DNA of 63,794 nt, the filler included, from Pelomyxa schiedti (Eukaryota; Protista; Evosea), in NCBI GenBank assembly GCA_020536535.1. It is 8 parts of 8 records of this genome, joined end to end, with 100 filler letters (N's around TTAATTAATTAA, not from the genome) between each part and the next. Parts side by side here need not be neighbours in the genome. Positions count along the whole stretch, not along the records: positions 44,637 to 52,782 come from JAHLWZ010000454.1; 7 more parts are not named here. One strand, 5' to 3'. Positions 1 to 53,047 of the stretch are shown here, in pieces (position 1 is the first letter of the stretch; the number at the start of each line of letters is the position of its first letter). A program made the translations under genes and the position numbers. The notes below the pieces were generated by a model that worked only from the letters and a program-made list of their open reading frames with translations, ran no database searches and had not been told where the DNA came from.

Positions 1-3000
1 AATGTTGTAAGTACCCCGTCAGAGGAGATGAAAAATACGATCATAGGAAAAGATCGCTGCAGTTGCTGTCTGAGCTGTGTCAGAATCTGGAATGTAAACA
101 GTAACATTCAAGCCTGCTCCAACTCCTACAGGAGGAGAGCAACCAATCTGTGTGTGGGCAACTTTCACACGTGCAGAGCTGCACACATCCCCATTTATTT
201 TTACTCCTACCTGTTAAACGCATGAACAGAACTGAAAAAAAAAAAAGTACAATACGTTAGTTCCAAGTGGTCCAAAATTGGAGCCATAGATGATAGCCTC
301 TTGTCTTCCGTCAGTCCCTGAACCATCTGCAGAGGACAAGGTCGGGGCTGCCAAAGTTGAGTTGGACAAGAAATTTGACCCACAGTACCATTATAGGAGA
401 AGATCGACTTAGTACTGGAAAGAGGGAAACTGTATCCCGTAGAAGTTGCTGGGATGGAGACTTGAACAGGCAATAATCCTCCAGCCCCTGGAGGCGGGAT
501 ACATGCTATTTCCACATGTGCTCGGCTCACAGAGGCATTAGCGCAGATTTTTCCGTCAATTGTAACAGCAACAGACGAATTCAATGGTCCAAAGTTGCTT
601 CCAGTAAGAATTACAGGGATGCCTCCTTTTGTGTCACAGGAAGTAGTACTATCCAGCTTAGGAGCTATCAGAGTTAGCATTATTTATTTGATTGAAATGC
701 ACACCATTGTATGAAAATACATTGGAGGAGGCATAGTGGTCAAGGCCAGGAACCAATACCTCAGTTTGGGTTTGTTAAGTGCCACGAGTTTATTGATGGT
801 TACCTCCACTTTCAGTGAAGATCCACAGCCTGGTGGAGGGGAACAGGCAATTTGCTTATGTGCTACTTGGACAAAAGCGTTTGGACAATTGACGGAGTTT
901 ATACGAACGGTCACGTTTGCCCCAATGGGACCAAAATTCGCTCCACTTATAACTGTCTTAGATGGGGCATCAGTATCGATTGGGCTTGCAGAAGTTATTT
1001 CAGGAGCTGCGTAATTTCAACCAATTTGGAGGAAAAAGACACCACACCTTTGTAAGAAAAAACAGAGTCTGTATGCTGGGCATGATTTGGATCTGAAGGA
1101 ATCCATAGACGGAGGGGGAGTACACCATATCCAGGTGGTGGGTAGCAAGAAACCTTGGTATGATTCTTGGACACCCAAGGTTCGCGGCAAGGTTGCCCTC
1201 CAATTGTGATATTGAAAGTTGCATCCAGAGATGATCCTAGGTTAAATCCTTCGATTACAAGCGACTCATTTCCATCCGTGTTGGCACGTGAGACAGAGGA
1301 AATTGAAGGTGCTACTAATATTGAGATTGTGCAAAGAATGTGAAAAGCAGACCTGTGTAGTCGAATACAGAAGAACTACAGTTCTGGGAGCCAAACTTTC
1401 CCTCAGCAGGTACCCAAACACCCACCACAACTTCAGCTCCAACACCAGGAGGCGCAATGCATTGAATCTGGAAATGGTCTACCCAGATAGTGGCATTCAA
1501 GCATGGTTTGCCACCAATTCGTACAGAGACACCTCCGGCAGCATCCAAGGTGCCAAAATTAGTGCCATATATCCTTACACTGGTACTTCCTGCTGTATCA
1601 GCAGAGCTGGCGAAAGATACAGTTGGAACTGCAGTGGGAATAGTGTAAAAAAAAAAAAAAAAAAAGTGATCCTGTACAATTGTAAGAAAAAGCACTAGCC
1701 GAGTACTGCAATGAAGGACGCCCAAATCTGGCAACAAAGACAGTAACTGTCAACCCTTCAAAGTTTCAAAGTGAGAAAGCGGCACCATGGGGAAACGGGG
1801 GAAGGACACACCAGCACCAGTAACATTGGCTGGTGGGTAACACTGAATCTCATGATGCGGAACAGAAACGGCAGCCTCAGTGCATTCACTTCCATTAATG
1901 GTTACACGAACCACTGTATCCAGAGGACCAAAGTTTTTCCCTGAAATCTATGAGGGGTCAAAACAAATGAATATATTCTTGGGTCCAACTCGTGTTTGAA
2001 CACGTTCATATGTATTAATACCAGTTGCAGAGTAGACTATTGGGCCTATCAAAAAGGTTGGTAGAGACGAGGAAAGGAGACTGTACCATTGTAAGAAAAA
2101 ATGTCAGCATAACCCTCAGTTTGGTTTCCAGTTTTTGGGAGCACAAAAATAGTTGTTGTGACATTTACACCAATACCGTTAGGTGGGTAACATTGTATTT
2201 CCGTATGAGCAATAGTCACAGTGGCGTTAGTGCACCATTGCCCATCGATCGTAACATTCACTGGCGTACCAACTGGGCCAAAGTTAGTGCCTGTTATAAG
2301 CGTCTTCATTGGGGGGTAGTTCAAGGTATCAACACTGGTGGAACTGAATGGGATCGGATCTTGTATCGACTTAGAGGGAAAAGGGGGTTATGGTGGACTT
2401 ACTATCATATGAAAATATATACGCCTTGCCCACAGTGAAATCGGCACCCGGTGAGGCAACACGGACCAAGACAATAAGATCTGCCCCAGCCCCAGCTTGA
2501 GGTACACATGTTATGTGTGTATGATTGAGTACAGTTGAATTATTGCATTTCTGTCCACCGATTTCAACTTCACTGAGTGTACCAGCAGGACCAAAGTTTT
2601 TCCCAACAATAACAGTAGTACCATTACCGGCTGTTGGAGTGGAACTGGAATAAGATGGAATAGGTGCTTGGGGAAAAGGTTAGGTTGAAAGTACTTCAAT
2701 GGGATTGAACTACCTTCATAAGAAAAAACTGGAGTACTCGGGGAGCTTGCATTAAGGTCTTTATAAATAAAGTATACAACAACAGGAAGATTAGCTCCAG
2801 CTCCAGGTGGAGGAAGGCAAGTTATTTCTGTATCATCTTTCACTACTTGTGGATCTTCACAAGAAAGCCCATTGATTTTTACGTGCACGCCTGTGCCACC
2901 AACTGGGCCAAAATGTTGTCCTAGTATGGTGGTCTGTGTAGTTCCAGTTGTAGGAACTTGTGTGGCATTTGAAATTTCGGGGTCTGGTTTTAGAAATGTT

Positions 3001-6000
3001 GGTTGGAAAGGTAGACATAAGATGATACAAACATGTATATGAAAATAGAGTAGCATTGACTACAACAAAGTCTGAACTCCCTTTAGGGGCAATGCCAACA
3101 GTAACGAGAGCGGCTGTCCCTTCTCCAGGTGGTGGAGAGCAAAGAATTTTCGTGTGTGATACTACTGAGGCATTTTTACAAGATACACCTCTAATAGTGA
3201 CCCACACAGATGTCTCATTTGGCTCTCCAAAGTTTTCTCCATAAATGTACGCCATGAATCCGTTTTGGGTTGGAAAGCTGGAGCCCCCAGTGATAATGGG
3301 ATCTATTAGTGGACAGTGAGGGCAATGGAAAAACTGAGGATCTACCAGCATAGCGGAAAGTAGCATATCCAAACTGTGGGTCATCCAATGGAGTGCCCAC
3401 AGATAAGGCCTTGGTTCCAACCCCTGGGGGTGGGTAACATTTAATTTCCGTATGAGCAACTGTTATGGTAGCAGAGGAACAGTTGTGGAGCCCAATCTGT
3501 ACAAAGACTTGAGTCCCGAGTGGTCCAAAGTTTTGGCCTGTTATGGTGGTTTGGACCAGGCCATTTGTGTTGACAGGTGTGGCATTGATTATGCTGGGTT
3601 CTATTATATTTGTGAGTTTTTTATCTTCCAAAGGGTCATCATACTGCTGTAGTTGAACAGTGTGATGGAAGAAAAAGTTTGGGCGCTAGATCCAGAGGAA
3701 GGAACAGAGACTGAGAGTGGCTTAAATGCACCAGCTCCTGGGGGCGCAATACAGGAAAGGTGCACATGAGGCTCGAGTAAGGATACATTAGTGCAGGGCT
3801 GGCTATTTATTTGCACATCGATACTGTCAACTGGCCCGAAATTAACTCCATAAATATTGATCAGTTCGCCTTGTGTCACAGAATTGTCACAAGAATAAAC
3901 TATTGGTTCTGGAATAAAGTAAATACTCAAGGGCACATGGAACAAAAGATACTTGGGTAATTGAAGGAATTTGAGGTACTGGTGGAAGAATTTAGACCCC
4001 CAGGAAGAAGTACAGTAATTACAACTTCCAAACTTTTGCCGCAACCTGGAGGAGGTGTACATTGAAGTTCCGTGTTATTGGTTATTACAACTATGTCTCT
4101 ACAAGGAGTTCCGCTAATAGTGATGTTAATTTGGGAGCCAGATACACCGAGGTGATCACCGTGAATGGATACCTAAAATTTGAAAGTAAGGCCTATGAGA
4201 AAAAAACTATGTATTACAGTGGAGTTTCCGAAAGTTGAAAGAGGTTCAGATATTGAGGAGATCACAGGGCTGTCAGGAACAAAAACACTTGCAGAGGTTT
4301 GCACCCATGCAGTATCACCAACATTGGACAACCACACAGTAACTAATGGACCTACTTCGATGTAAACAAGGAGGGTTACAGAGTCATTAGAGCTACCCAT
4401 GGTTCCTGGTGCTGGGGTGCATTTAATAACTGTATGTGCCACATATATAATCGAATCAGAGCACTCCTTATCAGGTGCAATGACAACTTTAACCCGGGTG
4501 CCCAGTGGCCCAAAGTTTCCACCATTTATAAGAACAGAGCCATTGTACACTCCAGCAGAAAGAATAACAGGGGCTGACAGAATAAGTTTACGCATGAGTT
4601 GTAAGACATACGGCTGTAGTGGAATACAGTATTACTTCCAGTTTGACCTGATACAGTTACTGCGACTGCCTTATTTTCACCAACACCAGGAACAGGAAAG
4701 CAAGATAATGCCTAAAGCAATTAAGAGAAAAAGAAAAACAAAGGAAAAAACTTACACTGTGTGAAAACAGTGAAACTGGTGAACAATAATCACCTCCAAC
4801 AGTTACAGAGACTAAAGATGCAGAAGCCCCGAAGTTAGATCCAACAATCACCGTAGGATTCTTTCCATCTGTGGATACAGCTGTGGCAGTAATAACGGTA
4901 GGGGCTGAACGGCAATAAGAAAGGGAAAAGAGGCCAAGATTACCTTGGTAAGACAGGAGTGCGTAGTAAGTATTGCTGAGAGGGTAGCTATCTATGGAAC
5001 TACTCAGCCACACATCATGGCTCTGCCCAGAACCTGGCCCAATAACACATGACATTCGAGTATTGTCAACTTCCACAATTGAGAAGTTGCAGTCCTTTCC
5101 GTCAACTTGGACAGCAACCTGCACTTTATTATTACGGAAAAATAATTTTACTGTAACATTACCTTTGTGCCAACAGGGCCGTAGTTAAGGCCTACCAGAG
5201 TAATTCTGCCACCATCAGTTGGTGGTGATGAGATTGATGAAATAGTTGGAACTAAACTATTAAATCACACTTCAAGAAAAACCAATAGTAGGCAGTACCA
5301 CTATAGGAGAAAACCCTTTGAGCAATCGAGGTCTGTGAGCTGACATTCACTTGTACGTTGTGACCCCCTCCTATAACGGCAGGTTAAGTGAAGATTTGCA
5401 TGAGAATTACCGACCTATCCCAGGTGGTGTTGTGCAGGAGATCGATGATTGGCTTAGGACTTGGGCATTAGAACAGGCGGTACTATCTATGAGTGCAGAG
5501 ACAGGTGTTGTACCAGTAGGTCCAAAGTTAGTCCCAGTAATGTACGTTATGGCACCAGTGGTGACCGTACTTGTTGCTGAGGAAACAGACGGCGCTACAG
5601 GGAATTTAATATCATCAAAACTGGTCGATACACGGACCATTGTAAGAGAATACACTTGCATAACCCGTTAAACCTGAAATAGTTACACTAATAGTACGCT
5701 TCACACCAGCACCCGGTGGGGGGTAGCAAGTTATTTGCGTGTGAGAAAGAACGGTAGGATTAGAGCAAGTTCCAGTTCCAATAGTTACAGTGGCCTTCAT
5801 AGAGATAAATAATCAAAAGGAGAAAGTGTTGATACAGTAGTTCCAGCAGGGCCAAAGTTCGTGCCTGTGATGGTTGTAAGGGTGCTACTATCAGTGTTTG
5901 CTGGTGTTGCTAATGAAACAATTGGAGCTGTATTCAGCCGTTAAATAAAAGTTTTTCTAAAAGGGGGGATACCAGGATATGTATAGGATCCTGTTCCGCG

Positions 6001-6634
6001 TCGAGAGTCCCCTGACGTTACTTGAATTGAGACCGTTTTGGTTCCCACACCAACAGGAGGGTTGCACTGAATCTGAGTGTGAGCTACGGTAACAGAAGCG
6101 CCTGTACAAGACACTCCTCCAATCCACACAGCAACTACAGTAACACGGGTTCACAATTGTTGAAACAATAATGGTGTGATACCGTAAGTCCCAGTAGGTC
6201 CAAAATTGTTGCCAGTTATTGTAACTTTAGTTATTCCGTCAGTACTGCCCCCCGTAACACCATAGCATGCTGGAGCTTGTTCCGATTAAGTGCACAAACG
6301 TCAGTAAGAAAAGGAACTTACCATTGTAGTCAAAAATGTTCGCAGAGCAACCACAGGTGCTGATAGAAATAGGCAAATCGACACCAGCACCAGCCGGCGC
6401 CGTGCACGTGACGGTATTTGACATGCCCCAGGAGTTGTAGTCACTTCCGTACTGGTTGGAGCACGTTTTGCCGCCAATGGTGACGGTGAAGTCATTGTTG
6501 TACCTCCAGGAGAGACTTTGCCCTCTGATAGTGATACTAGTGCTTCCGTACGTGTCTGACGACGTAGAGCTGGAAATCCACTGCCCCCAGCCGGCATCGG
6601 CACCACAAAAAAAAAACGCGGCAACGACAACCAT
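1..6634 (-). CDS. Giant multi-exon cell-surface/secreted protein with at least 20 tandem IPT/TIG (Ig-like) domains; 3' end lies beyond the window start
   Basis: Hydrophobic signal peptide MVVVAAFFFCGADAG at 6634 (upstream in-frame ATGs exist). The motif ITGxNFGPxG..V.V.I.G..C....V..HT.I.C..PPG.G recurs about every 330 bp (20 copies counted from about 6530 to 280), split by short introns. Confidence 0.9.
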
Positions 6635-7085
6635 TACTGCCGCTAGTCTGCAGTCGCTGCCGCGGCACCAACGAATACTGCAAGATCTAGATCCGGGTCT
6701 CCACCTGCCATGCCGCACCATCGTTGCCCTCTGCATTTTTTTTAAAAAGGATTCCTTCGATGCTTTTTCCTTTGTTCCAAAATCTTGATAATCCCAGCAT
6801 AAACGGTCCAGTGCTTCGTTGATTTCGGAAAAGTAGGCCCCGATCTGAGCCATCAACTGGCATTCTGCCAACGAATCTTTTGGGCTCGCCATCTCCTTGG
6901 CTCAGAAAAAATCACGGTGCATGTTCATTAGTAGTCTCTCGCAGGCTCAATCAGGATGATGGGACCCCCAGAGCCTCAGTCTTCAAGCCAATTGGGCGAA
7001 ACTCGTTTGAATTCGAATCAATCCCCTTTTCTTCTTTCGAAGCGTCGCGCGCCTTTTCGTCGTGTGCTGTAGTTATCCCATAACG

Positions 7086-18481: not shown

Positions 18482-20400
18482 ATGGCGCCATTCTCGTGTA
18501 CCCTTGTTGTTCCTCTTTCTTCCGCAACCTGTGTGTACCATGAATCTCACACACTCTTGCCCTGTTTGCACAGCTTATGCCTCGAGTGCATCCTCCTCAC
18601 CCGACCCCAGCGTAACCTCGTTAAGTGTCTCCCCGCGATCTATCGTTACATGCCCTGTGTGCCCGGAAACAACAAAAAACAGACCACAACTCCACCTGAG
18701 GCGTTCCCCTTTGACTTTTGCGGTTTTATTGCAATACTGACGAGTCACTGATATGCCAGGATTGCACGTATGCTTGTCTAATGGGGAGCATATATATATA
18801 TCATCATTTAGGTTGAATGAGCACAAGAACCATGAATGTGTTGTTGTCAATGACCTGCGCTCCCAATTCAAGGACAACATTGCCTCACTCTGTTCGCAGT
18901 TGTAATTGTACCTGGAGAAGGTTTCAATTTCGAAGCTCACCACAATTGTGTGTCTTCCATTCCATCATCCTAATTCTTTTCTTCCTCACAAACAACAAGG
19001 AGTGTTGCAAAAACACAGAAGAAGCTTCAGAGAAAGTCAAGTCAGAAATACGAACTGAATTTGCCAAGATTGTTGCTGTTGTCAATGCCAGGGAGGCTCA
19101 ACTGCTCTCAGAAGTGAATACAATCACTGGAACTGCGAAAAAGGTCTGTTAATTTTGCTGTTGTCCCCTTTCAACTGACAGAGACCACAAGACATTCCAA
19201 GAACACATTGAGGAATGCAACAACAAGATGAAGGATGCACAAGAGGCGCAAGAATATGCGCAACTGGTGACAACGAGGTTCTATGACCTCCAACTTGTGT
19301 CTGTCAATGATACTCTCACATCTCGTCTTAAAAAACTTTGCGCTTCTGGTGCTGAGAATTGTTCTCAAATACCAAATGAATTTAAGGTATCTTCCCCACA
19401 TCCACAATGTAAAATGCACAAACAAAAGGTGAGATTTGAATGTCATTCCACTTCCGTTTGTGGAACAATTTCATCACTTGGGCGTCTTGTTCACGACTCT
19501 GCCATCAGAAAACGTGATGCTAAGGTAACGACAGAGGCAGCAGAAACTACGACGATGACGAGGACACTCAAACAACTTGACACATTGTCGATGGTGCCCT
19601 CCATTCCACCGCGTCAGGCACACAGGCTGTTTGTTGACAACGCAACTGGAAAAGTGTACTGCGACAGTACGTACCACAATCCAGAACTGACAGAATTCGA
19701 GAACATGACGAACTTCATCAACAACACCAACCCAAGACAATTTACACTCAAAGTGGTGCCCCATTTCCCCCCGGGCCCGGGCCAGGCCGTGCACAACGGC
19801 CACGTGTACTGCACCCCATACAGTACATCCACAATGACCAAGGTGCGTGTGAGTGATGGATCAACAGTCGCAACTGCACAACTCAGAACCGGTCATTCAA
19901 AGCAATCATCATGGAGCTGTGGTGGATACACAGACATTTGCTGGTATGTTGATGCAGGGAGTGTGCTGTACGTGGTCCACGCACCACCAAAGGACCACTA
20001 CCAGAGCAACATACACATCACGAGGGTGGACCCTGACTCCCTCGCAATCCAACAAACGTGGGAGGTGCCCCGCATCAAGCAGCATACTGCCTTTGCATTT
20101 GTTGTGTGTGGGAAGTTCTACTTTGGCAAGTCTGATCGCAGCCAGGAAATCAATGGGTATTTGATACCGCGACTGGTGTTTATGATGACACTTACAGAAA
20201 CACACTCCCAACAACCAGCAAGTATGTGGCTCTGACTGCGTGGATACAGCTCCTCGTCATTTCCCGCTCTAATGACAGCACTGAGCTCCGCTACTTCATC
20301 TTTGACAATGTTGCTCTGTGAACCCAGCACCGGTCGAACTGTGTGTCATCACGGGAAAGTTTGCATCTGTATGTATTCCGGGCCCATTCGCAAGAAAAGT
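18482..20400 (+). pseudogene. TRIM-olfactomedin gene (copy 3): RING, B-box, coiled coil and a nearly complete OLF domain; disabled
   Basis: LLPCLHSLCLECI..VTCPVC; coiled coil; OLF motifs ELTEFENMTNF, GPGQAVHNGHVY, WSCGGYTDICWYVD, NIHITRVDPDSLAIQQTWEV, AFAFVVCGKFY. In-frame TAA at 18903 (TCA in copy 1) and frameshifts near 18600 and 20155. Confidence 0.8.
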
Positions 20401-20497: not shown

Positions 20498-22199
20498 CTA
20501 GAACGTAGACATAACACTGCTGATGTTTAGTGCAGAAGCCATTGAGCCACTGCTAGGTGTTGACTGTGTTGCCAAATTGGCTATTATAAAGGGTATTACC
20601 CCAAGTATCATTGTTCCTGTGATATAAGGATACGCCCGGCTCATTGGCATGTTCCCACCAATGGATTCATTTACCATGGTGGACACTGTTGACAGGCACC
20701 CACAGAATCCGGCTGTGAGACCCCATGACAACTGGTATGCGAGCGAAGNNNNNNNNNNNNNNNNNNNNNNNNNNNNNNNNNNNNNNNNNNNNNNNNNNNN
20801 NNNNNNNNNNNNNNNNNNNNNNNNNNNNNNNNNNNNNNNNNNNNNNNNGGATACGCCCGGCTCATTGGCATGTTCCCACCAATGGATTCATTTACCATGG
20901 TGGACACTGTTGACAGGCACCCACAGAATCCGGCTGTGAGACCCCATGACAACTGGTATGCGAGCGAAGATTCCGGGTTTCTGTGCTGTGCAGGTGAGAA
21001 TGTAGCGTACAGAATACAGGCCAGTGTGTTGCACAACATTGTGTGCCATGGAATTCCAATGTACTTCCAGAGCAGTGCAACTTTTTCGCGTGCAGTGAAC
21101 TCCATGTGTGCGAGCGGTGCGAAGTCCTCACCTTGTAGCTCCCCTTCTTTTAGGAGCTGTTTTGCAATGACCCGCTTGTCTTTTGGAGCCCATGAGATGA
21201 ATTTGGCTGCTCCCTTAGAGACACACCAACGCAAAAGTGCACCATATGGTCCAATTGCCATAGGAACTAAAAATTCCTTGGCGTCATCATTTTTGGCATC
21301 TGACAGTGCGTAGAGCGCTCCAACACATATCTTTTTTTTTGTTGTTGTTGTACTTTTTAGATCGAAACAAAAGAAAACCGTCTTACCGCGATATAAACAG
21401 AGAAGCAGAGCAGTGCAATTATGGTGACTCTCCTTTTAGTTATTACATGACTCTGCCTGCTAACCCTTTTGAGGTTTCTTTTGAAAATCTCGTAGGCTTT
21501 CAAGTGCCTATTTGGAAACAATAATATCTAAGTAAAGCTTAAAAGTGTTGGTGGAAGGAAAAACAAAAGGTTACCTTCCGGACTGGTAACACAAAACGGG
21601 GACAGCCCACCCAATTATCCAACAAGCAATACCTTCCAAAACTCTTGGAGTTGTCATCAAAGATCCAACATGTGACTCCCACCCACTGAATGTTGTGAGG
21701 CTGCCACAAAATCCAATAGACATAGCAATTCCCCAAGGGGATGGTTTTGTACCATCTTCCAAATAAGCCTGCTTGATCGCCAAGAACCCCATTATGAAGC
21801 ACCCCACACTATTCGAGAGTATGTCTCTCGGAATAGCAGTGCTCAAATCTCCCACATAGTAATTCCATGCGAATACAAATACAATCCTAATTGAGGTTTA
21901 ATTTGGATTAACTAACTGCCTTCGCCCCTACGAGCACAACCAAACATTCCAAAATAAAACGGGGGGGAAAAAAAAATCCCAAAAACACACCTGATTGCCA
22001 CACCAGCCACGGAGCACACAGTAATAAGTGCCACAATTTGGATATACGCAGCCCAATCGCACGGTGCATTTGGAGTCACGGCTGAGCTGGTAGTGAACAG
22101 GTCCTGGGGCCTGTGGTCACGCAGCAGCCTTTGCTTTTGCATACCAAGTTCGCTGTTGTACGACTGCCCGATCAACTGCCACATTGGGTGGGCTGCCAT
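20498..22199 (-). CDS. FEX1: Eukaryotic fluoride exporter FEX (two CrcB/Fluc domains)
   Basis: VAGVAIR; ILSNSVGCFIMG; GFCGSLTTFSGW; GPYGALLRW; TMLCNTLAC; GFCGCLSTVST. Confidence 0.92.
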
Positions 22200-28260: not shown

Positions 28261-29042
28261 CTAGTATCTTCCGTATGTGGATGGGGGTCGGGACTGCATT
28301 GTTGGAATTGCCATTGTTGTGGATTGAACAGGAGCACGGATTGGTTCCCGCAAGTTGCGTGGCTTCCACCACTCGGGGCGGCAGTAATCGTTGCACTCGT
28401 GGTGAACAAAGAAGTCGTTGATTCCTTGTGGTCCGAGGTCTGTGACTCCAAAGCTCCTTGTGGCTGACATGATGACTGGATCGCTGATCACCGCCGCGTC
28501 TCTGTACACTCCACCTTGAAGGTCGCACAGCAGCTTTTTGCCTCGATTGATGTGGTAAGAAAAGTGACTCAGTGCTTGCATGACTTGGCCCCACGGTGTG
28601 CCATCCTCGGACCAACCAGTGTTGGAGTTGAACTTCTCCCAGTTCTCAATGAATGGCTCCACAAGAATCTTCTCACCCTCCCGCTCCCCATAACATTCCC
28701 AGACCTCCGCTCTGTTCACGAGTATCGGTTTGTTGACAAAGTGTGCATCATTCCACTCCTGCACAATTGACACTGCCTCGTCGAGGGCGAGAATATCCCG
28801 TTCATAGAAATGCTCCTCGAAAACGGCACCCTCTTTGAACCACTTTGCCACGCAACGCTGTCCGGAACGAGTCCCTGCACGCCGGTGAAACGGCAAGCAC
28901 AAGTGGGGGGAAAAAAACCTTCGTTGTAAGTGCCCATACCAACCCATCGAAACGCGCCAGACGTGAAGGGACGAAGGTCAACAACAGCATGATTGGACAG
29001 GTTCTCCCTAACCGATGTCCAACGGTAGTCGTGCGCCGCCAT
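28261..29042 (-). CDS. Stand-alone alpha-kinase (eEF2K/MHCK family), one intron
   Basis: PFTSGAFR; CVAKWF; LVEPFIENWEKFNSNTG; QALSHFSYH; LLCDLQG; SDPVI; FGVTDLGPQGINDFFVHHECNDYC. Confidence 0.95.
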
Positions 29043-44636: not shown

Positions 44637-45225
44637 AGATGGTGCTCATCAGCGAGAGGGTAGACTTGCTCTTTCCAGTCATTTCCTAATATTATTTTTA
44701 AAGTCTCGCCATTGGTATAAATGAAACCACGAATGTCGGGCACTTCGCAAGAGCAATATTTGAAGCCACGTGCTTTCAAACAAAAGAGGTTGATAAGAAC
44801 TACAGTAAGTACACAAAACACTGTGTAAATGACTTCATATTTCAGGTCTTAGATGCAATGGTAAGTGACAGCTCTGTGGAACTTCAAGTTCTGAGAGTTG
44901 ATGGAGGAATGGTTGTGGCTGATATCATGCTCCAAATCCAAGCCGATTTGCTTGGCATTCCAATCAGTATGTAGCACCAAACACCAAAACAAACACTCTG
45001 ACGCACTCACACATCACAGTGAGACCACTGTGCTTGGAAACCACAGCACTGGGGGCCGCCGTGGCCGCCGGGATTGGCTGCGGCCTCATCGATGTTGATG
45101 CGCTGCCTTCGCTCCTGCAGCAGGACAGCACCACGTTCTCACCCACAATAACCGTGGAGCAACGGGCACTCCGCATGTCCGGCTGGACCAAAGCCGTCGA
45201 AAGGTCACTCAACTGGGCATCATGA
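44637..45225 (+). CDS. GK: Glycerol kinase, C-terminal exons (FGGY family), 5' truncated
   Basis: GHFARAIFEATCFQTKE; LRVDGGM..IMLQIQADLLG; ETTALGAAVAAG; GWTKAVERSLNW. Confidence 0.9.
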
Positions 45226-45687
45226 AACCCCATCCCACAACCAACCAAAGCACCTCGTGATGCACCAACACAATCATCAGTTCAATCGAAAGCCCAGACT
45301 GCTTTTAAACCATCCAACAATCAACACAAAGGGGGTGTAAGAAGCCAAAATAAGCAGCTCAAACAAGGAGAAAAAAAAGCTTCGAAGTGAACTTCTTGTT
45401 GCTGTGAAACCGGAATGAAACCCCGGTGTTGGACTGAAAAACAAAAAGGAAATTCCGGCACATTAATTAGTGCCTCATCACGAAAAAAATCATCGATCCA
45501 TTTAAAACAAACCAAAGATGCTGGGGCTCGCGATGCTGACAACGAACTCTGCTGGTGCGTTTTACATAGAAAACTCGTCGTTAAGTTGCCTGTTGGCAAC
45601 CAAACTAACAACACCCAACAACAAACGAGCTGTGTGCTTTCTTCGTACTTTTTTTTTTCCCTAAAGAAAAAAAATACAGAACAAAAG

Positions 45688-47128
45688 ATGTGGGCGAAAC
45701 TTCCTGGACTTTTTGCGACTTTGATTGCAAAGCCTACGTTGTCAAGTTTACCTCAGTCGACTGAAAATGAAACCGAGGATGACATCGTTGCGACTCTGTC
45801 ATCTGCCGAAGTGAGACACACAAAATCGGAAAATCTGCATCGAAGTTGTCCTGACGACGAGCATTCCACGGAATCTTGTCAAATTCCCCAAATGCACCCT
45901 CATCTGCATCGTCGCGATAGCGCTTATTCCGATGAATCAATAATGTGTCATAATCTCAGCCCTGTTTGCGACGAGGAGTACGAGCAGGAGGAAGTCATTG
46001 ACTGCCAACAACCTGCCGTGGAACAGCAGTACGACGAGTTCGATCTCCTATGTGACTGTTTGTCAACTTCTGAACCAAGAAACAAATATCTTGAGGACTC
46101 TCAAAAATTGCAGTTATTTCCACCAGAAGATACGGAATTGTATGTGACTTTCCACTTGATTATGTTTGTCTCAATTTCTCCTTCAGTCTCTTGCCTCCCA
46201 AAATTTTTTTTTCTCCAAAGAAAACTCTGGTTCTGGATCTTGATGAAACGTTGATGCACAGTTCTCTGGAGGTGTGAAGTGTATCTGAAAATAATGATTT
46301 TAATTAAATACAAGCCATTGCCCCGCATTGACCACAAGTTTGATGTCACGGTTGACGGCGTTTCAGCAACGATTTACATGGTTAAAAGACCTGGAGTGGA
46401 GCAATTTTTGCAACTGCTGAGGAATAAGTATGAACTGGTTGTTTTCACAGCAAGTATTCCGGAGGTGCACAGCCCTTCTAAATCTAATTGAGACTAACTT
46501 CAGCTCAGTATGCTGACAAGGTGATTGATTTTATCGATGTGCATCATGCTATTACTTCGCGGTTGTACCGATCGTCATGCGCGCATATCTTTGGGAACTA
46601 TGTAAAGGTTCGAGGTACCCATGATTTCCACACCTCTTATTTTAACAGGACTTGGACAAACTTGGAAGGGATATGTGCGATACAGTCATCATTGACAACA
46701 CACCAGCCTCGTACATGTTTCATCCTCATAACGCGGTCCCTATCAGTTCCTTCACCACCAATCCGAATGACACAGAACTGATGTCATTGGAGCAGCTCCT
46801 TTGTGACATGTCAGCCTACAACGGAGACGTGAGAACGTATATCTCTGAACACATCGTCACCATTCCCAGTTGCCCCAGCATTACGCACCCCCCCAGCACC
46901 CACAAGTTACCTCCAATTCCATTGTGCCCAGACCACAACCCATCTCAAACAACGGTCACAACCACAAGCACAACCACAACCACAACAGCAGAACTCACTT
47001 CCACAGCCACAGAATCAACAACGTTCAAAAACACGTCTCAACCATGGTTCAAAAGCGAACCCATGGCCCAGCAACCCTCTTTCATTCCACCTTTGGATGA
47101 GGAACCGGAAGCTGAAGACACAAGATGA
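45688..47128 (+). CDS. CTD small phosphatase-like (NIF/FCP1 HAD family)
   Basis: KTLVLDLDETLMHS (DxDxT); VKRPGVEQFL; VVFTAS..YADKVID; RLYRSSC; YVK|DLDKLGRD; IIDNTPASYMFHPHNAVPI. Confidence 0.93.
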
Positions 47129-47340
47129 TGAAGCCCATTGCACATTGACTGATTAATCAGTATCACACCAATACCTCCGCCACATTACACAGTCAGCAAA
47201 TCATGATTCAGGCTGGACGGAATTTGTTGTTTCTGTCCAAACCAAGAGAAGAGATATAAAACACAAGGAATTTTACACTTTTTTTCGCGATGGAAATTGC
47301 AATCACCAGTCGCGATTTTCCGGCCTTTTGAGCCGTTGTT

Positions 47341-47501
47341 TTCATTCACAGGAACGGCCGGAGCGTTCATTCTAATGGTCTTTCCTTGAATCCCCCGCCG
47401 TTGTACCACAGAAAGATTGTAAATAGGAATAATAACAAAAATAATTCTTCCTGATAGACACTATCACGCACCCAACTCAAATGGGAACGAGTCTTATCAG
47501 A
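47341..47501. repeat. Direct repeat of about 160 bp, copy 1 (copy 2 at 49628-49789)
   Basis: TTCATTCACAGGAACGGCCGGAGCGTTCATTCT...AAATGGGAACGAG(AG)TCTTATCAGA present twice with scattered substitutions. Confidence 0.9.
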
Positions 47502-47599
47502 AATCCTCGACTGTCTGGACAGGAGTGCCTCAGGCACACCGCCGCGTTCAACGTCAACTGCTTCTTGAAGGAGATGACTTATCTCTGTGAGGCGCTACT

Positions 47600-48226
47600 T
47601 CAGATGATGTGGGTAACTTTGGTTTCGTTAGGGCCGTTACCAGGAAGCTGGCAGAGCTCGTGCTGCAGGGTTACTCCGAGGAGCTCATGAATGGGGAGTG
47701 TGTGGGGTTCAATCCCCGTGGCACCGAAAAGGTTGTGCTGCAGGGTTACTCCTATGAGCTCATGAATGGGGAGTGTGCGGGGTTCAATCCCCGTGGCACC
47801 AAAAAGGTTTTCGAGAATTTCACCCAGAGTGTTGGAGGTAAACGACGCGTTGTTGTTGCTGCCATGGGTGCTGAGAAGTCAGGCAAGTCCACACTCCTGA
47901 ACACGATGTTCAACCTGAGTTTTGGTGTGAGTGCAACAAAGTGCACCCAAGGCGTAAACATGTAGATTCTCCGGATGGACACAACTGCCTCCTGGATCCA
48001 GGTGGCCACTTCCACTTCAAATCCTGCTAGCTATGGGAATATCATGGTTTTGGATACACAGGGTCTGGCAACAGCAGTAAAAAGTAACATAGATCTCAAT
48101 TGGGCCTCTGACAACAAGCTCACCACTTTCATCACTACAATCGCAGATCTGACAATAATTAACAATGCCAGTCTTGGCGACACTGCAATGCACAGGTTCC
48201 TCGAAGCTCTGGGTTGCTCAAGCTGA
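47600..48226 (+). pseudogene. Very-large-inducible GTPase (GVIN/VLIG, GB1/RHD3 clan) GTPase-domain remnant
   Basis: LAELVLQGYSEELMNGE (75-bp tandem duplication, 47660-47809); MGAEKSGKSTLLNTMFNLSFGVSATKCTQGVNM*; VLDTQGL; DNKLTTFI...LTIIN; in-frame TAG at 47963. Confidence 0.8.
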
Positions 48227-49488
48227 ACAAGGTTGACCCACATTGGTTGCTCCTATCTGGATCAATGGGTGGTGATTTTTTGAATGAATTGGATACCAAA
48301 ATGAAGGGAGTGAAATGTGCTGTCTCAGAATTAGATCACCTGTTGTCTTTGTGTTTGAACAAAGATGGTGAAGTCAAATGGGAGAAAGGAGAAAAGTTTG
48401 TGACAGCATTGAGAGAACTAATTGACCAAAAAAAAGGAAAAAGAGGCAAAGATGAAAATTGAAGAAAAGAAGAACAAAAAAGAAAAGGTGTGTGTGATTC
48501 TGTAGAATACACAAGCAAACTCTCTGCAAGCACAAGCACGAACACCGAGACTGAGAGACTGACCTGCTGAGTCAGCACTCGGACCTGACATCTTAGGAAA
48601 TCGAGTTCGCAGAAATCTACCTGATCGTTCACCTCGATTTCAAGTCGTTTTCGAGTCCTTATAAGCCCAACACACTCCGACCTTAGAATCACGACTTAAA
48701 CCTCACAAATCTAAACAAACAACAAACAAACAGAATAAATAATAGAATCCTTTCTTGATCTCGTTCTTGTTCTCTGCTTCACTGTCACACAACAAACTAC
48801 ACATCCCCACAGAAGCACACAGGTGCATCTTTTCATAAAAAAGGTAAAAAAAAAAAGAAACTCTCACAATTTGTGTTAGTCACTGTATCTGGACTTTGTC
48901 ACAAACAATCCTCACACCTGGAGGTTCTTAATTGTATTTTCATCACCACTCTAAAACACATTTGAAGGTGCTGTTTCTACATAGCCCATTCAGTGCAATT
49001 TGGAGTCAACTCAAAAAAGTGTACATTTGGCAAGATGGAGGTTTAAAAACAATGCAAAATTTAGGCACTATAAACACTGTCTATCCCCAAGTCAATACTT
49101 AAGCTGCTTCGTTTTTAGATTTTAATGAAGTTCACCAGCAGTATCCCAACTCTGAATTGAAGGCTTCTATGCATTTTTTTTGCTCCACATCGTGGACACT
49201 CCAGCAATGTGAAAAAGCATTTGAGAAACAAGCTTTCTGGAAATCTTCTGATGAATAGTAAGATCATAGTAGACACAATGGCTGACCTTCCCCACAGTAC
49301 AGCATTTGAGCTTTCACACAAATTTTTAAGGTGAAGACTACCTCAAGATCATTGGACAAAGAAAACACTCAAAATTACTGAGTCTGCTCAAGTGCACCAA
49401 CAAGCACAAGCAAGACAGTCTAAGCACCACTTTGGCTTAAATGCCTTCAGAGGCCTCAGACCAGAGCTGATTGAAAGAATAAGAAATG

Positions 49489-49561
49489 TGGTTTTGTTTT
49501 AGTCGCGGCTTTTACCCCCCCACAGACGGGGTTCGATCCCGGCCAAACCAATTTTTTTTTT
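49489..49561 (+). ncRNA. tRNA-like remnant (B-box and oligo-T), incomplete cloverleaf
   Basis: GGTTCGATCCC (49530-49540) followed by GGCCAAACCA and a T10 run; TGGTTT/AAACCA could pair; D and anticodon arms not recoverable. Confidence 0.3.
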
Positions 49562-49627
49562 ACATTTGCGCAAATCTGAGCGTGTTATATCTGATGATTT
49601 TTATTTTTGCTCCGAAACTTGTGTTCG

Positions 49628-49789
49628 TTCATTCACAGGAACGGCCGGAGCGTTCATTCTGATGGCCTTTCCGTGAATCCCCCGCCGTTGTACCACGGAA
49701 AGGTTGTAAATAGGAATAATAACAAAAATAATTCTTCTTGATAGACACTATCACACACAGCTCAAATGGGAACGAGAGTCTTATCAGAT
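49628..49789. repeat. Direct repeat of about 160 bp, copy 2
   Basis: See 47341-47501; contains the hairpin CCTTTCCGTG...CACGGAAAGG. Confidence 0.9.
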
Positions 49790-49844
49790 CTCAGAGAAAT
49801 GGTGAAATTGTGTCTATCAAAGAGATATGATGGAAAAGAGCATC

Positions 49845-50442
49845 TCAAGATTTGAGCACTGCTATTTGAGAAGGTGTGAGGGTAGCGCCCTGTATTATAT
49901 CCACACGCATCTTGTATCCAACAATCAGTGTTGATGTTGTTGCACGATTATCTGGGACATCAATGCGAACCACAAACTGTACACGAACATCTTTTTTCCC
50001 TTCAGGTGTTTCAATTGTAAGACAGCGGCACTGGTTCGTTTTTCGTTCAACCCCTTTCAGATACATGAGGTTTTTTCATTTTTGATATAGTGCTGATGAA
50101 GAAGAACCTGTAGTGTCTTGTTTCATCAGAAGTTCAAAGACCTCCTTTCCCATGGTGGTCAGCTCCTTTTTTGTGAGTGAGCGTGCAAAACAAGTGTCAA
50201 CTGTATCCCTGATGTGCTGATCGTTCATTCCAGAAGAAAAAGTTGCTTTCACAACATCTTCCTTTGTTTCCACCACACCCTAGGAATCTTTTACTTGAAC
50301 CATTCGCATGCTTCTTTTGTACCAGGGAATCCTCCATTTTGAAATACTTCTGAGCATCACGTTCCAGGCCATCCTCCACATTCGTAAGACACTGCTGGGT
50401 ATCAATTACCCGGGTCTCCGGCTTGCTGTCACTCCCCCCCAT
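49845..50442 (-). CDS. Unknown protein of about 166 aa with an N-myristoylation motif, paralog A (3 exons)
   Basis: MGGSDSK...MEDSL|GVVETKEDVVKATFSSGMN...LLMKQDTT|GVERKTNQCRCLTIETPEGKKDVRVQFV...STLIVGYKMRVDIIQ; both GT-AG introns restore the frame. Confidence 0.8.
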
Positions 50443-50615
50443 CTCGCTTTTTTTTGTTCCTCATTAACAGTACCAAGTTTAAACCAGCTGAACAAACAAA
50501 AAAATACCTGGTTTCCACGAACTTGGAAGCTATTCAGCGAACACAGAAAAGTTTTTGTTGAGTTGCCTCTGACCAAGTTACACTAATAGAAATTATAAAA
50601 AAGAAGGGGGGAGAC

Positions 50616-51234
50616 ATGGGCTCTTCAGACAGTAAGGTCGAAATACAATGTGTACCCCAGGAGCCATACATCCGGGGACTCGTTAGCAGTTTAGACGCAG
50701 AGTTACAGAACGAGGCAAAAACCTTTTTCAACACCGATCGTACCCTGGTTGCTCCACAATTCTACCAATTTACCCTAATGAAGAGCCTATAGGATCTGGT
50801 GGAGTCAAAAGAAGATGTTGTGCAAGTTTCTTTTTCTTCTGGAATGAATGCTGGGCATATGAACGACACAATTGACTCATGTTTTGCACGTTCACCAGCA
50901 AGACAAGAGCTGGCTGCCATTGGGAAAGAAGTGATACAGCTTTTGATGAAATCTGACGTCAGAGGTTTTCTCTTAGTTTTCTTCACCACACATAGTCATA
51001 TCAAAAACAGAAGTGGTCCGCACAACAAGAGACTGTCGTAACCTCACAATTCATACTGCCGAAGGAAAAAAGCATGTGCGCCTCCAATTTGTGTGTGGAA
51101 TCCGTTCCACAACGGCCAATGGACGCCTCTATGGCTCCTCTTCAACACTCATTGTTGGTTACAAAATGCGGCTGGATATCATTCAAGAAGGTGCACTCAC
51201 TGCTGCTGATCTAAGGTCTGTAGACCTTTTTTGA
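50616..51234 (+). CDS. Unknown protein of about 175 aa with an N-myristoylation motif, paralog B (3 exons)
   Basis: MGSSDSK...TDRTL|DLVESKEDVVQVSFSSGMN...LLMKSDVR|EVVRTTRDCRNLTIHTAEGKKHVRLQFV...STLIVGYKMRLDIIQ; intron 1 at 50748-50792; same intron positions and phases as paralog A. Confidence 0.8.
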
Positions 51235-51840
51235 GATGCTCTAGGACCTGCCAAAAAAAACCAGACTCCTTGTTGTTTTTCTCCAAGTCTTTTTTAACGG
51301 TAAAATTATGCATCGGGACTCATAGATAGAGCACCCGAATCATTGGACAAATAAACTTGGAAGCAATAACTGTGACGACCTGGGGTCAAGATGTAAGAAA
51401 GAAATTACAAACACGAGCAATAACATACTCCCTGGGCACGCGAGGTTTCTTTTTCTCGGGGGCGTGGTTTGCTCCTACGCGTCGTGGCGGCTTCGAGAGC
51501 CAACAACAAACTTGGTGCGATGGTTCCTTCCGACCTGCCTGTGGTGAGTAGCGCGTTACAGCCGACCGTCTATTATTACTGCGACATCTGTATGGTGGCA
51601 CTGCAATCATCATTTTTATAGGAAAACGGGTCGATTTATGTGCTGCAATGGTGACGAACAGCGGCGATTGGGTGGCGAATGAAGTGAAGGGTGACCCAGA
51701 AGCACAGCAACGAATAATTACAAAACTTGCATGTTGTGGCNNNNNNNNNNNNNNNNNNNNNNNNNNNNNNNNNNNNNNNNNNNNNNNNNNNNNNNNNNNN
51801 NNNNNNNNNNNNNNNNNNNNNNNNNNNNNNNNNNNNNNNN

Positions 51841-52362
51841 CACAGAACTGATGTCATTGGAGCAGCTCCTTTGTGACATGTCAGCCTACAACGGAGACGT
51901 GAGAACGTATATCTCTGAACACATCGTCACCATTCCCAGTTGCCCCAGCATTACGCACCCCTCCAGCACCCGCAAGTTACCTCCAATTCCATTGTTCCCA
52001 GACCACAACCCATCCCAAACAACACCAGCAAACCATTCAACAGCCACAACCACAAGCACAACCACCACAACAACAGCAGAACCCACTTCCACAGCCACAG
52101 AATCAACACCGTTCAAAAACACATCTCAACCATGGTTCAAAAGTGAACCCATGGCCCAGCAACCCTCTTTCATTCCACCTTTGGATGCGGAACCGGAAGC
52201 TGAAGACACAAGATGATGAAGCCCATTGCACATTGACTGATTAATCAGTATCACACCAATACCTCCGCCACATTACACAGTCAGCAACTCATGATTCAGG
52301 TTGGATGGAATTTGTTGTTTCTGTCCAAACCAAGAGAAGAGCTATAAAACACAAGGAATTTT
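51841..52362 (+). repeat. Second, diverged copy of the 3' end and downstream flank of the CTD phosphatase gene (46771-47274)
   Basis: Near-identical sequence with several substitutions and an 18-bp in-frame insertion; begins at a 100-N gap. Confidence 0.9.
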
Positions 52363-53047
52363 CTTTTTTTTACCCACTTGAAGAAAAAAGAATACTTTCA
52401 ATAATTCCTTGCAAGGTGTGAGATGGTTGTACAGTCGAACGACCCAATCTAGCCTGTAGAGCTGCTAGAAGTAAAAGTCATGTGCCATCGGAATCTCGGT
52501 GAAAAGAAACTTCGTTGGAATGAAGAGTGGAACACGGATGGAGCTGGTTTCTTATTATTCCCACCTTGCTGAATGACAGTGCAAACATATTGCTTCTGGT
52601 GGTTTTCCGAGTACAAGTGCGTACTTATCCGCAGGTTCTCCAAAGACCAAGTAATGGCGGACTATTATTCCAGCATTGTCGGGGGAAGTAGCACAGATTC
52701 CTACCGGGGATGTACAATCAGTACGAGAGCTATTGCAGCTGCTTGTGGAGGAATGTGACATCAATACGAAAACAAATGCCAANNNNNNNNNNNNNNNNNN
52801 NNNNNNNNNNNNNNNNNNNNNNNNNNTTAATTAATTAANNNNNNNNNNNNNNNNNNNNNNNNNNNNNNNNNNNNNNNNNNNNACTTGTCACCACACTTGG
52901 AGGCACAAATAACGACGTTCCTGTGTCTACCTCAGTTGTTGCTCTCGTTGGTTTATTGCGTCCCATCACTATGCAACAACCAATTTTTTTTTTCTTGTCT
53001 TTAGTACTAGAACAAGATCGTCACTATTATACACAGTAACAAAGGCA

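Follow-up and report, generated by a model that had tools for sequence, protein, structure and literature searches.

What can be the function of two small genes that lie head to head in the genome of the anaerobic amoeba Pelomyxa schiedti and resemble each other from end to end? The window analysed here, that is the whole stretch of 63,794 nucleotides (filler included) taken from assembly GCA_020536535.1, contains this pair, genes A and B, in the part derived from record JAHLWZ010000454.1. The answer that we favour, tentatively and with a probability somewhat short of even, is that A and B are likely myristoylated cytosolic proteins predicted to have the fold of the Cyt cytolysins, toxins with which insect-killing bacteria and mushrooms damage membranes. 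They would attach to the cytosolic side of one of the cell's own membranes and likely assemble there edge to edge, jointly and probably each by itself too, into arcs or filaments that would damage or permeabilise it.

Both genes are intact and consist of three exons, with start codons 173 bases apart. Gene A (minus strand, 50442-49845) encodes a product of 166 amino acids (aa), identical to P0002, Pelo_5693 and KAH3762466.1, and the 175-aa product of gene B (plus strand, 50616-51234) is identical to P0001. The two proteins can be aligned from end to end with 49% identity, and two cysteines (A70/B74 and A106/B110) fall in the same columns. The introns, all GT-AG, are also at the same aligned columns and in the same phases. 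A first-pass annotation of this DNA had described two genes of about 170 aa at this spacing, with identical intron positions and phases and five shared sequence blocks, and all of this was found to be correct. The features of the pair are given below; X followed by a number denotes a sequencing run.

49845..50053, minus strand: exon 3 of A, with predicted long amphipathic strands, C-terminal helix and stop codon TGA (model; partial X3 contig)
50054..50107, minus strand: intron 2 of A, 54 nt, GT-AG, phase 1 (site aligned with intron 2 of B)
50108..50279, minus strand: exon 2 of A, 172 nt, with predicted edge strand at residues 45-53 (contact with B) and helical hairpin (models)
50280..50322, minus strand: intron 1 of A, 43 nt, GT-AG, phase 0 (required by the frame; site aligned with intron 1 of B)
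50323..50442, minus strand: exon 1 of A, codons 1-40, starting with the N-myristoylation motif MGGSDSK (protein as in P0002/Pelo_5693)
50443..50615, no strand: divergent intergenic region, 173 nt, 37% GC, presumed shared promoter, with TATAAAA at 50594
50616..50747, plus strand: exon 1 of B, codons 1-44, starting with the N-myristoylation motif MGSSDSK (spliced contigs)
50748..50792, plus strand: intron 1 of B, 45 nt, GT-AG, phase 0 (absent from X3, X4, X5 and X6 contigs)
50793..50964, plus strand: exon 2 of B, 172 nt, 73% complementary to exon 2 of A (inverted repeat)
50965..51010, plus strand: intron 2 of B, 46 nt, GT-AG, phase 1 (absent from X3, X4, X5, X6, X7 and X9 contigs)
51011..51234, plus strand: exon 3 of B, with predicted edge strand at residues 102-110 (contact with A), long strands and stop codon TGA at 51232-51234

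The paralogs had been judged well diverged yet under selection, and the codon comparison bears this out. The proportion of nonsynonymous differences (pN) is 0.31 and that of synonymous differences (pS) 0.67 (Jukes-Cantor dN 0.40 and dS 1.72), pS was equal to or lower than pN in none of 5000 bootstraps, and different codons are used at 40 of the 77 identical residues other than M and W. Both genes are under purifying selection, and the pair is therefore old and its proteins conserved. Its most likely origin is an ancient inverted duplication, in which the copied gene already carried the introns.

Gene B is transcribed and spliced. The evidence comes from contigs of 8 of the 9 listed runs, which indicate presence only and were not used for co-expression: intron 1 was spliced out in 4 of the 8 runs and intron 2 in 6, and in one run an unspliced contig with a depth of 19 extends across 49758-51366. 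Coverage of A consists of one contig of 202 nt (49767-49968) in X3, one of the 6 runs with spliced B, and no spliced junction of A was seen in the contigs of the 8 runs. The introns of A are assigned from sequence and reading frame, from paralogy with B and from the identical NCBI model. The sequence TATAAAA is present at 50594 as annotated, but a role as the TATA box of B is doubtful because a B transcript contig (X4 record 9) already begins at 50602, too near for a canonical box; the usual spacing is 25-30 nt.

The public model of gene B, Pelo_5694 (252 aa, P0003), joins it by splicing to a copy of a phosphatase tail located downstream. This model is contradicted by a transcript contig, record 3 of X3, which crosses the stop codon of B and continues unspliced to 51260, so that Pelo_5694 is corrected here as a chimera. 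Read-through of an in-frame TAG in B was also discarded, as this TAG is an intron acceptor. The locus tags Pelo_5693 and Pelo_5694 were not found in the supplementary text files of PMC10579272 (six files) and PMC8887013 (two files). A contig of 218 nt from X8, a run labelled as bee metagenome, lies at 51009-51226, is identical to exon 3 of B and begins at the splice boundary; it is most likely a carry-over between libraries and not evidence of habitat.

Where would these proteins be found in the cell? Both start with MGxSDSK, as previously noted, and after the methionine 5 of 6 residues are identical, compared with only 5 of the 33 that make up the remainder of exon 1 (p 0.002), which strengthens the earlier suggestion of an N-myristoylation motif. 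Among the 1661 open ATG 7-mers of the window, 31 match a loose pattern and only two, those of A and B, have MGxxx[ST]K. Both match Gly2, Ser6 and Lys7, the pattern of PROSITE PS00008. No hydrophobic segment fit for a signal or transmembrane helix is present in either sequence, and residues 1-20 are unstructured in both models. A and B are likely N-myristoylated and cytosolic.

The search for relatives returned the pair itself. HMMER over 1.84 billion representatives gave three matches at E<=0.001, A and B included, and the third (P0028) was rejected as spurious, since only 32 residues match and the protein is a peptidoglycan-binding repeat protein from a bacterium; the family has no third member in this collection. 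Word-seeded searches confirmed only A and B (2 of 1907 and 2 of 665 candidates), none of the pattern matches in metagenome contigs (0/228) or viral contigs (0/41) was confirmed, plasmids and phages gave only matches with E values of 7-9, PDB sequences gave none, and the best E value in PHROGs and NCBIfam was 0.21. The profile was built from two sequences and is weak, so that distant relatives may escape it. No known housekeeping family, a match to which the first-pass annotation had named as speaking against its proposal, appeared in the homologue searches. A thioredoxin-like Pfam match of A to TXNDC16 (E 0.0067) was discarded, being below the cut-off and not repeated by B.

The structural models, which are of low confidence, give a lead on the nature of A and B. 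In all six PDB fold searches with these models cytolysin chains ranked first, and volvatoxin A2 was the top VIA match of both, with an identity of 5-12% in the structural alignments. The ESM features of A indicate the same rare cytolysin family, and a cluster bearing Evf is among its ESM matches (0.94, 15% of members). The long C-terminal amphipathic strands were modelled at residues 98-113 (broken), 116-129 and 137-150 of A and 102-117, 120-136 and 146-158 of B, with a predicted local distance difference test (pLDDT) score of 42-62, and have a high beta hydrophobic moment. The second helical hairpin is the best-modelled part of both proteins; the N-terminal layer, where pLDDT stays below 50, was modelled as a single helix. 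A Cyt/volvatoxin fold, in which a central antiparallel sheet is enclosed by two helical layers, is tentatively predicted for these compact proteins. If this likeness were an artefact of poor models, the true fold of A and B would be a different alpha/beta one (PAS, hotdog, START or new), and they could be a myristoylated signalling or ligand-binding pair. We give this explanation little probability: the cytolysin chains come first throughout and are aligned over 104-135 residues, compared with 75-95 for PAS, and the ESM features point in the same direction.

Sequence comparison lends no support to the Cyt assignment; membership of PF01338 fails on sequence. Neither protein has a Pfam match to this family at E<=10, our own profile of 20 Cyt sequences (mostly of Bacillus type, with no fungal or actinobacterial members) gave -1.3 and -2.3 bits, as shuffled sequences do, and hhalign against the Cyt family reached 0.2%. 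Cyt and volvatoxin have the same fold at less than 17% identity (PMC4179158), and the missing sequence signal therefore does not exclude kinship. The first-pass suggestion of a cytolysin-like fold holds in that Cyt-like proteins are the best structural matches; its aegerolysin and gasdermin variants find no support in Pfam, where A and B have no match to aegerolysin, MACPF or gasdermin. Evf (PF18270) was likewise without a Pfam match. Chains of aegerolysin, gasdermin and Evf were not among the PDB fold matches listed, which is not excluding for models of low confidence.

A search of viral folds with the model of A found nothing at E<=0.001. An uncharacterised protein of 192 aa from the giant virus Borely moumouvirus (A0A6G6ADX5) was matched at E 0.02, with a probability of 0.94 and a root-mean-square deviation of 16, and an ESM cluster of 95 mostly viral proteins of 205 aa scored 0.95 with A. 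These are possible relatives with a Cyt fold, to be taken as leads only.

The closeness to volvatoxin A2 suggests another use of the same fold, namely a stored toxin against predators or competitors, inactive in the cytosol and acting on foreign membranes after ingestion or rupture of the cell, with the myristate possibly kept in the lipid pocket. The lack of a hydrophobic signal segment is consistent with storage, and in Evf the corresponding pocket encloses a palmitate (PMC5390079, PMC5780409). An exposed N-terminal myristate, however, usually directs a protein to the membranes of its own cell, and the unstructured residues 1-20 also speak against this explanation, which we hold to be improbable.

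Do the two proteins work together? In ESMFold2 the pair scored 0.75 (0.75, 0.73 and 0.77 in separate runs) and the best control 0.00; the runs share at least 64% of their contacts, and the partner pLDDT is at least 68. For B this score was 68-71 when modelled together with A and 33 next to an unrelated chain. In a benchmark without close relatives, 51 of 78 solved microbial pairs passed the mark, as did 2 of 108 mismatched ones; among eukaryotic pairs the figures were 39 of 65 (solved) and 2 of 126 (unrelated), and a pass does not tell which member of a family binds. In the best-defined contacts residues 45-53 of A are predicted to run antiparallel to residues 102-110 of B. Each chain contributes a different strand, so that the contact is head to tail and would leave the opposite edges free for growth. 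The donating strand belongs to the same KEDVV block in both paralogs, whereas the accepting strand is identical at only 4 of 9 positions. The model speaks for polymers and for A and B being compatible, not for an obligate heterodimer.

It could nevertheless be that A and B form an obligate two-component system in which neither is active without the other, be it as an alternating polymer or with one gating the other. The presumed divergent promoter region of 173 nt in common, the purifying selection on both genes, the predicted contact and the difference in the accepting strand all agree with this, and volvatoxin A1 (VVA1) is known to control volvatoxin A2 (VVA2) by direct contact (PMC9230820). 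However, self-assembly fits equally well, because the interface is head to tail and the KEDVV donor strand is common to both. Moreover, three of four clustered Cyt paralogs of Dickeya were tested and each was toxic alone (PMC5390079), two Cyt-like genes of Rhizoctonia bear consecutive locus tags (PMC4014442), and Pfam finds no additional sensor domain in A or B. An obligate system is rather unlikely. Of the two-component system first proposed, the predicted contact remains, which gives no support to an obligate or sensor/executor design, as each paralog could also make it with itself. Head-to-head pairs of the NLR (nucleotide-binding leucine-rich repeat) type have nucleotide-binding, repeat or integrated sensor domains and an asymmetric architecture. 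A and B are single-domain proteins of the same size with no such Pfam domain, and in this they do not resemble sensor/executor immune pairs of that type.

How could such proteins act on a membrane? In the reading that we favour, two selected genes give proteins which, judging by the motif, would be myristoylated and dock on the cytosolic face. The sheets would then be extended edge to edge, as the predicted contact suggests, after which the helical hairpin may open and the long strands insert, producing arcs, filaments or lesions. Lipid binding, sheet-to-sheet assembly and lesion formation are expected here from the Cyt family, where a mechanism through arcs, filaments or lesions was proposed for Cyt1Aa (PMC7052140) and such assemblies were seen for Cyt2Aa2 (PMC11951046); how the Cyt pore is built has yet to be settled (PMC7052140). 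The target might be the food vacuole or the symbiont-containing vesicle, a guess and the weakest step. P. schiedti houses one of its symbionts in membrane vesicles, and the passage of nucleotides across the host membrane is unexplained (PMC10579272). A stricter version would be a Cyt fold turned inward, in which a myristoylated pore of alternating A and B opens food-vacuole or symbiont-vesicle membranes from the cytosol, with a function like that of gasdermin on a different fold; this we consider quite improbable.

The fold may also have been domesticated without lytic action, so that myristoylated polymers bind lipid and serve as scaffolds which shape or coat membranes. A and B are more polar than Cyt toxins, a lytic protein that is anchored in the cytosol to the cell's own membranes would have to be tightly controlled, and neither protein shows an evident inhibitory domain, and the splicing of B in 6 of 8 runs is compatible with routine expression. 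In addition, the lipid pocket is conserved in the family, and Evf, a lipidated member, is not known to be lytic (PMC5390079, PMC5780409). On the other hand, A and B retain the long amphipathic strands that characterise the inserting part, and orphan status would be unusual for a core trafficking protein. We regard such a non-lytic role as unlikely, and the membrane-damaging polymer is kept as the preferred reading.

The surroundings of the pair have to be read with care. Its record occupies 44637-52782 (8146 bases) and the other records of the window are joined through N spacers; genes outside these limits are therefore not true neighbours. The record carries a NIF/CTD phosphatase gene, a GVIN/URGCP-type fragment, repeats flanking the pair, a gap and the phosphatase-tail copy:

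47500..48226, plus strand: broken GVIN/URGCP-type GTPase fragment, with a tandem duplication of 75 nt and an in-frame stop at 47963-47965
49613..49825, no strand: high-copy dispersed repeat just past the stop of A (summed contig depth about 900-1600, compared with 19 over the genes, X1)
51246..51440, no strand: lower-copy repeat just past the stop of B (depth 59-160, compared with 19, X1)

The GVIN remnant reported earlier is real (Pfam PF25683, E 1.5e-17 and 2.7e-08) and its P-loop is intact. It begins at the edge of a dispersed repeat (47341-47501), lies about 1.6 kb from the stop of A and is tied to the pair by distance alone. This repeat is a copy of 49628-49788 (92.6%), and the high-copy repeat also holds inverted arms of 24 nt (49733-49756 and 49802-49825, 79% complementary), so that the element at 49733-49825 could be a small non-autonomous transposon. 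After a gap of 100 N, the 3' end of the phosphatase gene (46771-47285) recurs at 51841-52370 (92.9%). This copy may stem from a duplication, from a second haplotype or from a soft join between scaffolds; RNA reads were used to scaffold the published assembly (PMC8887013). No tRNA or credible Rfam match was found near the pair. The segment 44680-45226 may be the 3' part of a glycerol kinase gene; in the one exon scanned Pfam finds nothing to support this. In the other records Pfam recognises a CrcB/Fluc fluoride channel (20671-21435), an olfactomedin-like domain (19153-20235), an alpha-kinase (28261-28977) and a multi-IPT/TIG protein (2511-6901).

If the predicted fold is right, the cytolysin family would reach the Amoebozoa as a branch of sequence orphans, with a new mode of targeting, a lipid anchor on the cytosolic side of the producer itself. 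The pair would be a candidate for the handling of the membranes that enclose prey and endosymbionts in the amoeba, and with two small paralogs and a predicted edge-to-edge interface the sheet-to-sheet model could be put to a manageable test. In the literature searched, whose coverage leaves out most subscription journals, no cytolysin-fold protein that is amoebozoan or N-myristoylated was found, nor a description of an inward-facing use of this fold.

Among known systems, aegerolysin/MACPF pores combine an aegerolysin domain with an unrelated large MACPF protein, while A and B are paralogs of the same size with a Pfam match to neither. The Cyt, volvatoxin and Evf clades have a common cytolysin fold and lipid pocket (PMC5390079). 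Proteins with this fold have been described from bacteria (Cyt, Evf) and fungi (volvatoxin, Rhizoctonia, Fusarium) as acting on other organisms, PF01338 being also present in fungi (PMC4014442), and yeast killer toxins resemble it (PMC13211469). The best structural matches are Cyt1Aa, Cyt2Aa and Cyt2Ba of Bacillus thuringiensis (PF01338; 3RON, 6T1A, 1CBY, 2RCI), which are single-domain proteins whose elements follow one another as in the models of A and B (strand, helix, strand, helical hairpin, three long strands, short helix) and for which, as predicted for A and B, sheet-to-sheet assembly is assumed. A and B differ from them in having no detectable sequence similarity, in being shorter (166-175 compared with about 200-280 aa) and more polar, in being modelled with one N-terminal helix instead of a hairpin, in having an N-myristoylation motif where Cyt has a cleaved propeptide, and in being encoded by spliced eukaryotic genes.

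Volvatoxin A2 of Volvariella volvacea (1PP0, 1VCY) is a eukaryotic protein with the cytolysin fold and, with VVA1, the precedent for two components. VVA1, however, is a separate protein of 44.8 kDa, whereas A and B are equal-size paralogs with 49% identity, and no myristoylation of VVA2 is reported in the extracts examined. CytA-D of Dickeya dadantii (2MLW) are also short Cyt-fold paralogs, adjacent after duplication, for which proteolytic activation is unneeded. Evf of Erwinia carotovora (PF18270; 2W3Y) is a cytolysin-fold protein that has a covalent fatty acid and binds lipid vesicles, as A and B are predicted to do; it is larger and bears an internal S-palmitate on a cysteine (PMC5780409), whereas the predicted lipid of A and B is an N-terminal myristate.
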